In this document: one piece after another, positions 28,219-29,130 of the stretch
Numbering within the stretch: position 1 is the stretch's first letter
Layout of the letters: each line of letters opens with the position of its first letter
Sequence record: OL362274.1
Length of the DNA stretch: 47,726 nucleotides
Strand: one strand, 5' to 3'
From: Escherichia phage HC6
Position numbers and translations under genes: made by a program
The notes under the pieces: model-generated
Told to the model about the DNA's origin: nothing
What the model saw: only the letters and a program-made list of their open reading frames with translations
Database searches by the model: none

Positions 28219-28688
28219 TGCCATCATTACGCGATTATAAATCAAAGCGCCCTAACTGGGCGTTGTTCGACACGATAACGTTTTATCACTCGTCATTCGG
28301 CTATGTGCGTCTTGTGGCTAACGTTCTGGATGAAATGGTGCTTGGCGGCGAAACATACCTGCCAGTTCGCATGGACATTACGCAGTCTCAGCAGTCGAAT
28401 ACACCTGCAATTAACGCAACCGTCAAGTTTGCACGTCTGGCTAATGACTTCAAGCAATACCTGAAACTGTGGACTGGTTCCGGTCGCATTGAGCCAATCA
28501 GCGCACTGTATCAGAGATTTGAAGAGGCCGACACGAATACACCACTGAAACCATATCGCCTGTATGTCAGCGATGTGGCAATGGATGGTTCTGACGTTAC
28601 CGTTACGCTGTCAATCAAAAATCCAATCAAAGGGAACGTGGCAAAACTTTATGACATCGCTCAATTCCCCGGGCTGCGCAATGTCTGA
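28218..28688 (+). CDS. minor tail protein (lambda gpL-like position)
   Basis: 156 aa; positional. Confidence 0.45.
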
Positions 28689-29130
28689 TGAAGAATTTGC
28701 GCAGTTAATGTTTGGTAAACCGTACAAAGACAGATGCTGCCATGTTGATTCCGTGGATTGCTGGGGGCTGGTGGTGCTTTATTATCGCCTGTGCCGTGGC
28801 ATCAATGTTCATCATGACGACAGTTATGATAATGGCGGTTCTTTTGTTACTTGCTTCGATAGCGAGGTGACATTCTGGAAGGATACGCAATCACCAGCAA
28901 CAGGCGATGTTGTCGTGGCATATCGCGGCAACGTTCCTGTGCACATCGCCATGATATGGGGTCGTGATAGAATACTTCATGCGCGAGAGAAAACTGCAGT
29001 CAGATTTGACAGGCTGCGAACACTCGAAAAAATATCAACAAAGTTAAGGTTTCTCACCTATGCCAGTAATTCATGTTCAGAAGATGCCGGGCACACCGAA
29101 AGAAACGGGAATTGTGCCAGCAGGCACTAA
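28681..29130 (+). CDS. NlpC/P60-family tail protein (lambda gpK-like)
   Basis: Cys (CWGLV) and His (HIAMIW, ILHA) catalytic residues in NlpC/P60 order; 3-prime end overlaps next gene by about 70 nt. Confidence 0.55.

Follow-up and report, generated by a model that had tools for sequence, protein, structure and literature searches.

The tail-tip genes of Escherichia phage HC6 (sequence record OL362274.1) follow one another in the order tape measure protein, distal tail protein, baseplate hub protein 1 (in the position of lambda gpL), peptidase, hub, and tailspike, and the junction between the peptidase and hub genes is the subject of this analysis. In the DNA examined, a stretch of 47,726 nucleotides (nt) referred to below as the window, the frame of a small NlpC/P60 cysteine-peptidase gene is open from the ATG at 28681 to the TAA at 29128-29130 (149 amino acids, aa). 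The next gene, which encodes baseplate hub protein 2 (hereafter the hub protein), is read in the +1 frame relative to the peptidase; this frame is closed upstream by the TAA at 29045-29047, and the first start codon thereafter is the ATG at 29060, from which a protein of 829 aa extends to 31549. Further in-frame hub starts are present at 29084 (ATG, Met9) and 29114 (GTG, Val19). The original prediction, made from the bare sequence, had described an overlap of 70 nt between the two genes; this figure is right to within one base, the overlap being 71 nt when the stop codon is included (Table 1).

Table 1. Features of the peptidase-hub junction and of the neighbouring tail genes (window coordinates)
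Feature	Position	Strand	Remarks
NlpC/P60 cysteine-peptidase gene, 149 aa, gpK position	28681..29130	+	Pfam NLPC_P60; phrog_329 minor tail protein
Folded, conserved part of the peptidase (codons 1-128)	28681..29064	+	Ends at the invariant Tyr127-Ala128
Putative Shine-Dalgarno sequence AAGG of the hub gene	29046..29049	+	10 nt before ATG 29060, within peptidase codons 122-123
Baseplate hub protein 2, 829 aa	29060..31549	+	Ubiquitin-like domain, hydrophobic linker, gpJ/TipJ-type hub
Predicted ubiquitin-like (ThiS/MoaD-type beta-grasp) domain, residues 1-68	29060..29263	+	
Out-of-frame overlap, 71 nt including the stop codon	29060..29130	+	Shaped by hub-frame constraints only
Non-conserved C-terminal run-on of the peptidase, residues 129-149 and stop	29065..29130	+	By-product of the overlap
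Tape measure protein	25370-27745		
Distal tail protein	27745-28218		
Baseplate hub protein 1, gpL position, 156 aa	28218..28688	+	phrog_396 minor tail protein; weak DUF1833 match
Tailspike with endosialidase-type chaperone domain	31589-34168		

The junction was compared across 47 sequences. Forty of these are close relatives, including 39 IMG/VR contigs, with peptidases 58-98% identical to that of the window; the remaining seven come from more distant phages and prophages, designated L045, L047, L048, L049, L050, L051, and L052. The 3.9-kb region around the overlap is matched at 100% by ON637251 (Escherichia phage 6947), for which the window coordinate equals the record coordinate plus 23. The same region is 87-93% identical to that of about 150 Jersey-like siphophages, whose hosts are Salmonella, Escherichia, and Shigella, and 153 phage records match at a DNA identity of at least 80%.

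The first line of evidence concerns the start of the hub gene. The ATG at 29060 is invariant, being present in all 40 close and all seven distant sequences, and the close relatives conserve the peptide that it opens, M-P-V-I-H-[VI]-Q-K, which can also be made out in most of the distant sequences; an alignment of 39 hub homologues shows no exception at M1 or P2. The in-frame alternatives behave differently. In place of the Met9 codon, 6 of the 40 close relatives have ATA, ATT, CTG, or CTA (Ile or Leu), and the distant sequences have GTT, GTG, CTG, or TTT (Val, Leu, or Phe), while the GTG of Val19 is not conserved and is often GTT. A start at Val19 was rejected on conservation and codon-position evidence. 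In addition, position 1 of the phrog_469 profile aligns to hub residue 1, and the deposited sequence of the orthologous protein gp14 of phage Sf11 (PDB 9OCC chain E) opens with MPVIHVQK.

The second line of evidence is a switch of constraint from one frame to the other. In the 150 nt before 29060, nucleotide diversity peaks at the third codon position of the peptidase frame (0.215 versus 0.05 and 0.06 at the other two); from +3 to +41 after 29060, it peaks at the third position of the hub frame (0.244 versus 0.051 and 0.023). The periodicity of synonymous sites thus changes frame exactly at 29060. Counts of variants tell the same story: upstream, over the same 150 nt, the peptidase frame shows 70 synonymous and 55 non-synonymous variants, whereas within the overlap it shows 5 and 50, respectively, a ratio like that of the same frame further downstream, where it is non-coding (21/142). 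The hub frame, by contrast, shows 33 synonymous and 22 non-synonymous variants over the whole overlap. Between the two ATGs the corresponding counts are 7 and 2 in the hub frame versus 0 and 9 in the peptidase frame. Purifying selection within the overlap is therefore detected in the hub frame only, and not in both frames, as it would be in a dual-coding segment.

Judged by these comparisons, ATG 29060 is the true start of the hub gene. The original prediction had placed the start there, and the invariant ATG, the codon-position switch, and a predicted first beta-strand in codons 2-8 all support that placement. It had also suggested that homologues might reveal a later Met as the genuine start; the reverse was found, since 29060 is invariant and both Met9 and Val19 vary.

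The sequence upstream of this ATG is compatible with independent initiation. The alignment columns of the AAGG listed in Table 1 read AAGG, GGAG, or GGAA in all 13 of the diverse relatives aligned there, and the CPT annotation of phage Skate places a ribosome binding site at the corresponding point. The two peptidase codons involved (122-123, window 29044-29049) are TTA-AGG (Leu-Arg) in one clade and GTG-GAG or GTG-GAA (Val-Glu) in the others. That the charge of the peptidase residue flips while the purine-rich motif is kept suggests that the RNA signal, and not the protein, is the constrained feature at these positions.

The third line of evidence comes from the peptidase end. The ATG of the hub gene sits within the codons TAT-GCC of Tyr127-Ala128, which are the last two conserved codons of the peptidase; both residues are invariant in 25 peptidase homologues, down to 41% identity. 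In the AlphaFold2 (AF2) model, the last predicted strand spans residues 121-127, and the predicted local distance difference test (pLDDT) score is 83-97 for most of residues 1-130. The last 21 residues are predicted to be disordered, with pLDDT below 50 for residues 132-149 (33-42 is cited for the tail). The length of the segment past Tyr-Ala ranges from 2 to 28 residues in homologues. The peptidase tail is a run-on without detectable constraint.

Accordingly variable is the length of the overlap. An overlap is present in all 40 close relatives, which excludes a sequencing accident, and it measures 71 nt in 11 of them, 92 nt in 14, 89 nt in 9, 53 nt in 3, 41 nt in 2, and 59 nt in 1. In the distant sequences it measures 14 nt in L045, L047, L051, and L052, 80 nt in L048, 53 nt in L049, and 41 nt in L050. 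In the same relative frame of the genome's long open reading frames (ORFs), stop codons occur at a frequency of 0.078, so that the probability of at least 23 codons remaining open is about 0.14-0.15. The overlap is as long as chance gives and is statistically unremarkable. Within a genome it nevertheless stands out: in the hand-curated annotation of Skate, no partial overlap is longer than this one of 71 nt, the second longest being 37 nt, and it is because of this outlier status that gene callers stumble at the junction. The description of the overlap as unusual in the original prediction thus holds for its rank in the Skate genome. It does not hold for its length, which lies within chance expectation (P about 0.15), nor for the arrangement, given that a long overlap of genes K and I is annotated in lambda.

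Taken together, these observations are best accounted for, in our opinion with a probability of roughly 0.88, by two tail-tip genes that are translated independently and do no more than overlap out of frame. Ribosomes would initiate the hub protein at ATG 29060 on its own Shine-Dalgarno sequence. Past this point the sequence would be shaped by the hub protein alone, whose first seven or eight residues are predicted to form strand 1 of its N-terminal domain. The peptidase frame would simply read on to a chance stop, which adds a disordered, unconstrained tail (21 residues in the window), and the length of the overlap would drift among relatives as the peptidase stop moves. None of the special mechanisms that the original prediction had considered, namely a later start, coupling, or frameshifting, is needed to explain the junction.

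It should be noted that several points weigh against this reading. The hub coding sequence of ON637251 (29061..31526) begins at window position 29084, i.e., at the second ATG, and the RefSeq record NC_054648 (phage STGO-35-1) annotates the second ATG as well. The 10-nt spacing between the Shine-Dalgarno sequence and ATG 29060 is at the long end of the usual range. The cryo-electron microscopy model of the Sf11 protein covers residues 81-827 only, leaving the N-terminus unseen (PMC12724387), and no N-terminal peptide of the hub protein was found in the literature, the Sf11 supplement containing only figures. The constraint on codons 2-8 shows that they are translated, but this is compatible with additional minor initiation, which may take place at Met9 where that residue is present. 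Finally, that the peptidase tail has no function is inferred from absent constraint and not from a deletion experiment.

The first of these points leads to the proposal that the hub gene starts at 29084, leaving codons 1-8 untranslated and an overlap of 47 nt. Besides the two annotations, the presence of this ATG in 34 of the 40 close relatives speaks for it. The start chosen in these records, however, omits eight conserved residues that make up the first strand of the predicted N-terminal beta-grasp domain (beta1, codons 2-8). The replacement of Met9 by Ile or Leu in six close relatives, and by Val, Leu, or Phe in distant ones, the excess of synonymous variants in codons 2-8 (7 versus 2), and the retention of the motif M-P-V-I-H-[VI]-Q all argue against a start downstream of them, and no purine-rich Shine-Dalgarno sequence is evident by eye in the approximately 15 nt before 29084. 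Moreover, such a start would still leave a long overlap, so that the oddity it was meant to remove would stay. We regard this start as improbable. Still less credible is the notion that the overlap is dual-coding and that the peptidase tail serves a function of its own, such as that of a motif docking onto the hub protein. A tail of some length is indeed found in every relative examined; its frame, however, carries 50 non-synonymous against 5 synonymous variants, its length past Tyr-Ala varies from 2 to 28 residues in homologues, it is predicted to be disordered, and natural variants (L045, L047, L051) end two residues past Tyr-Ala. The apparent conservation of the tail motif SNSCSED is fully explained by MPVIHVQK in the other frame. 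We consider such a function very improbable.

Two further explanations invoke the translational apparatus. A programmed +1 (or -2) frameshift within the overlap could fuse the peptidase to the hub protein, as happens in tail chaperone pairs; the two frames do overlap, the genes are functionally linked, and K-I and I-J fusions occur in some prophages (Iyer et al. 2006; PMC1779556). Because the hub frame is closed just upstream of the ATG (by the TAA in the window and 3-6 nt upstream of the ATG in L047, L048, and L049), a frameshift would be possible only inside the overlap, and an overlap of 14 nt, as found in several relatives, leaves almost no room for it. No slippery motif is conserved across the 47 junctions, the predicted folding of the junction RNA is no stronger than that of shuffled sequence (z = -0.44), and no consensus structure or covariation was found among 13 aligned relatives (-0.64 kcal/mol). 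With an invariant ATG and a Shine-Dalgarno sequence of its own available to the hub gene, frameshifting, which the original prediction had raised and which would have to be of the +1 type, deserves next to no credence. The alternative of translational control, in which ribosomes translating the peptidase occlude the hub start or keep it unfolded, is unlikely but less remote, and it could add to independent initiation instead of replacing it. Some interference is unavoidable in principle, with the Shine-Dalgarno sequence and the ATG both lying within translated peptidase codons, and the ATG keeps its place within the Tyr-Ala codons even in relatives with only about 40% protein identity. Nevertheless, the junction offers no RNA structure to be unfolded, and a stop codon 71 nt past the start would, judging from what is generally known of coupling, be too far away for classical termination-reinitiation. 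The stop position varies from 14 to 92 nt among relatives and is not under selection; since the termination site drifts freely, termination-reinitiation is argued against. Coupling is possible, but nothing at the junction calls for it, the hub gene having a conserved Shine-Dalgarno sequence of its own. A scan for an internal promoter or terminator at the junction gave no more matches than shuffled sequences did.

The identity of the two overlapping genes bears out most of what had been read from the sequence. The upstream gene had been described as an NlpC/P60-like gene in the position of gpK. This assignment is upheld by a match to Pfam NLPC_P60 (PF00877; 35 bits versus a cutoff of 23, residues 12-113) and by gene order, the peptidase lying between L-type and I/J-type genes, i.e., in the position of lambda gpK or TAPK. 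Residues C27, H88, and H100 are invariant in the 25 peptidase homologues. The AF2 model matches the structures of MepS/Spr, LytE, and other NlpC/P60 proteins (template modelling score about 0.6, E 4e-6), and a PDB sequence search with the peptidase profile returned no match. The profile, the Cys/His residues, and the modelled papain-like fold together place the protein among C40 peptidases, with catalysis predicted. A JAB/MPN domain is absent: NLPC_P60 is the sole Pfam match in the 149 residues, and there is no NCBIfam match.

At its 5' end, the peptidase gene overlaps the preceding gene as well, its ATG overlapping with the TGA of the gpL-position gene (ATGTCTGA, 8 nt, 28681-28688). No obvious Shine-Dalgarno sequence is seen before the ATG at 28681; together with the 8-nt overlap, this would be in keeping with a non-structural enzyme that is translated by coupling and at a low level. 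As delimited mechanically, the peptidase ORF stretches upstream as far as 28564; an N-terminal extension of the form 'MTS.NSPGC...', added by some gene callers, is absent from distant homologues.

The downstream gene combines two parts. One is a hub of the gpJ/TipJ type: the C-terminal 470 residues match the NCBIfam TipJ-related family (NF040662; 451 bits versus a cutoff of 140, residues 355-822), and with Foldseek the model finds chains of lambda gpJ (E 1e-21 to 1e-25) as well as T5 pb3 (1e-9). For the N-terminal part, AF2 run on an alignment of 39 homologues predicts strands at residues 3-7, 15-18, 38-42, and 62-67 and a helix at 25-31 (pLDDT 76-89), so that the beta-grasp N-terminus claimed in the original prediction agrees with the model. 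The Pfam ThiS profile matches weakly and below threshold (18.5 versus 22.5 bits, E 0.003; residues 25-65 on profile positions 27-69 of 76); the register of this sub-threshold match projects the start of the domain onto hub residue 1. NCBI labels hub homologues as 'MoaD/ThiS family protein'. The label 'gpI-like', which the original prediction had applied to the downstream gene, fits the fold and the gene position. It is incomplete in that the domain is fused to a gpJ/TipJ-type hub and in that the Lambda_tail_I family (PF06805) gives no match to the hub protein even at E<=10, while lambda gpI itself scores 100 bits. Comparison of the hub N-terminal profile with lambda gpI by hhalign yielded a probability of 0.2%. 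Homology to gpI would therefore be indicated only by the predicted fold and the gene position.

The predicted ubiquitin-like domain is followed by a hydrophobic helix (residues 74-90), and Q68, P69, and G74 are invariant in hub homologues. In lambda gpI the resolved part starts at residue 101 or 135, and the Sf11 hub model begins only at residue 81. The unseen N-termini fit a proposal made in 2006 that the K-type peptidase clips the ubiquitin-like domain; simple flexibility is equally possible. A more elaborate version, which we regard as doubtful at best, would hold that the Shine-Dalgarno sequence and ATG are embedded in the peptidase gene because selection favoured synthesis of the two proteins from the same mRNA, in the same place, and at a set ratio, the nascent domain being handed to the peptidase and clipped by it near Q68-P69...G74. 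If true, it would account for the failure to see residues 1-80 in the Sf11 tail, and the junction would be part of a phage 'ubiquitin-like processing' system and not a matter of mere genome compaction.

The practical value of settling the hub start lies mainly in annotation quality, i.e., in correcting inconsistent hub starts and omitted peptidase genes. Among eight related records compared, both genes are annotated, with the hub starting at the first ATG, in four (Skate, ZCKP2, Erwinia phage 59, and ST13-OXA48phi12.5). Two place the hub start at the second ATG (ON637251 and NC_054648), and in two the peptidase gene is missing (ST1UNAM, OQ469755; Sf11, NC_054636). In Sf11, the gene annotated as 'gp15' is a 58-aa antisense ORF (L053:346-522, minus strand) that lies inside an intact peptidase ORF of 155 aa (L053:292-789, plus strand; the mechanical ORF has 165 aa); its equivalent in the window is 28705-28890 (minus strand), within the peptidase gene. 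Because the peptidase is unannotated, the mass-spectrometry table of the Sf11 virion is mute on its presence in the particle, and it would have been missing from any virion mass-spectrometry search that relied on the Sf11 annotation. The use of Sf11 virion proteomics as a test for the peptidase, or for a fusion, in the virion was dropped for this reason, 'gp15' not being the peptidase. The junction also provides a clean genetic handle, as the substitution T29061C leaves the peptidase residue unchanged (TAT to TAC) but destroys the start codon of the hub gene (ATG to ACG). Biologically more interesting than the overlap is a neighbouring matter, the proposal that the K-type peptidase cuts the ubiquitin-like domain off the hub protein or off gpI.

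The genes around the junction deserve brief mention. The gpL-position gene has a homologue in Sf11 gp16, which is modelled in the Sf11 tail tip. The tailspike combines a Tail_spike_N adaptor domain with a C-terminal Peptidase_S74 domain (endosialidase chaperone), and the gene name given to the matching tailspike in the records of ST1UNAM and ZCEC08 is endo-N-acetylneuraminidase. This annotation hints at a capsule (K1-type) receptor; Sf11 and the Salmonella relatives have O-antigen tailspikes instead. In Skate, an HNH homing endonuclease gene (L004:1019-1510, minus strand), absent from the window, lies between the genes for distal tail protein and hub protein 1, and because of such an insertion several relatives aligned in two pieces.

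Comparison with known systems places the junction in a familiar setting. Overlapping frames in the tail gene cluster of siphophages are also found in the programmed-frameshift pairs of the lambda G/GT type. The present junction differs from these: it lacks a slippery heptamer and a stimulatory structure, its second frame is not open upstream of the start, and its second gene has an ATG and a Shine-Dalgarno sequence of its own. A direct orthologue with a solved structure is Sf11 gp14, with about 95% identity over 829 residues as read from the alignment (1765 bits). Sf11 has the same junction, with an overlap of 89 nt, and differs in that its NlpC/P60 gene is unannotated.

In lambda, the genes are likewise ordered L, K (NlpC/P60), I (with an N-terminal ubiquitin-like domain), and J, and K extends at its 3' end past the start of I. 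The annotated overlap in NC_001416 is 103 nt (K 14276-14875, I 14773-15444); it would be 64 nt with the second ATG as the start of I. That ATG corresponds to residue 14 of annotated gpI, at which the Pfam Lambda_tail_I profile begins, yet tblastn matches (about 61% identity) reach residue 1. In most of the lambdoid records sampled, the stretch encoding the first 100 residues of I carries annotations of a K-type as well as an I-type gene. Long K/I overlaps are thus already standard in reference annotations, and an overlap of this kind is already known. Several features set lambda apart: K has an additional JAB/MPN domain (Iyer et al. 2006; PMC1779556), whereas the peptidase here is NlpC/P60 only; I is a separate protein of 223 aa, in contrast to the fusion of ubiquitin-like domain and J-type hub seen here; and the frame of I is -1 relative to K, whereas that of the hub is +1 relative to the peptidase. 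Because the frame relations differ, the two overlaps are analogous and not positionally homologous.

The architecture of the two genes corresponds exactly to one described by Iyer, Burroughs, and Aravind, in which a ubiquitin-like TAPI is fused to TAPJ beside an NlpC/P60-only K (Iyer et al. 2006; PMC1779556). These authors proposed that K processes the ubiquitin-like domain, and they regarded the NlpC-only and TAPI-TAPJ versions as possibly degenerate prophage forms. The gene overlap is not discussed in their paper; the window and its relatives differ from the forms described there in that this architecture is found in a large group of isolated phages.

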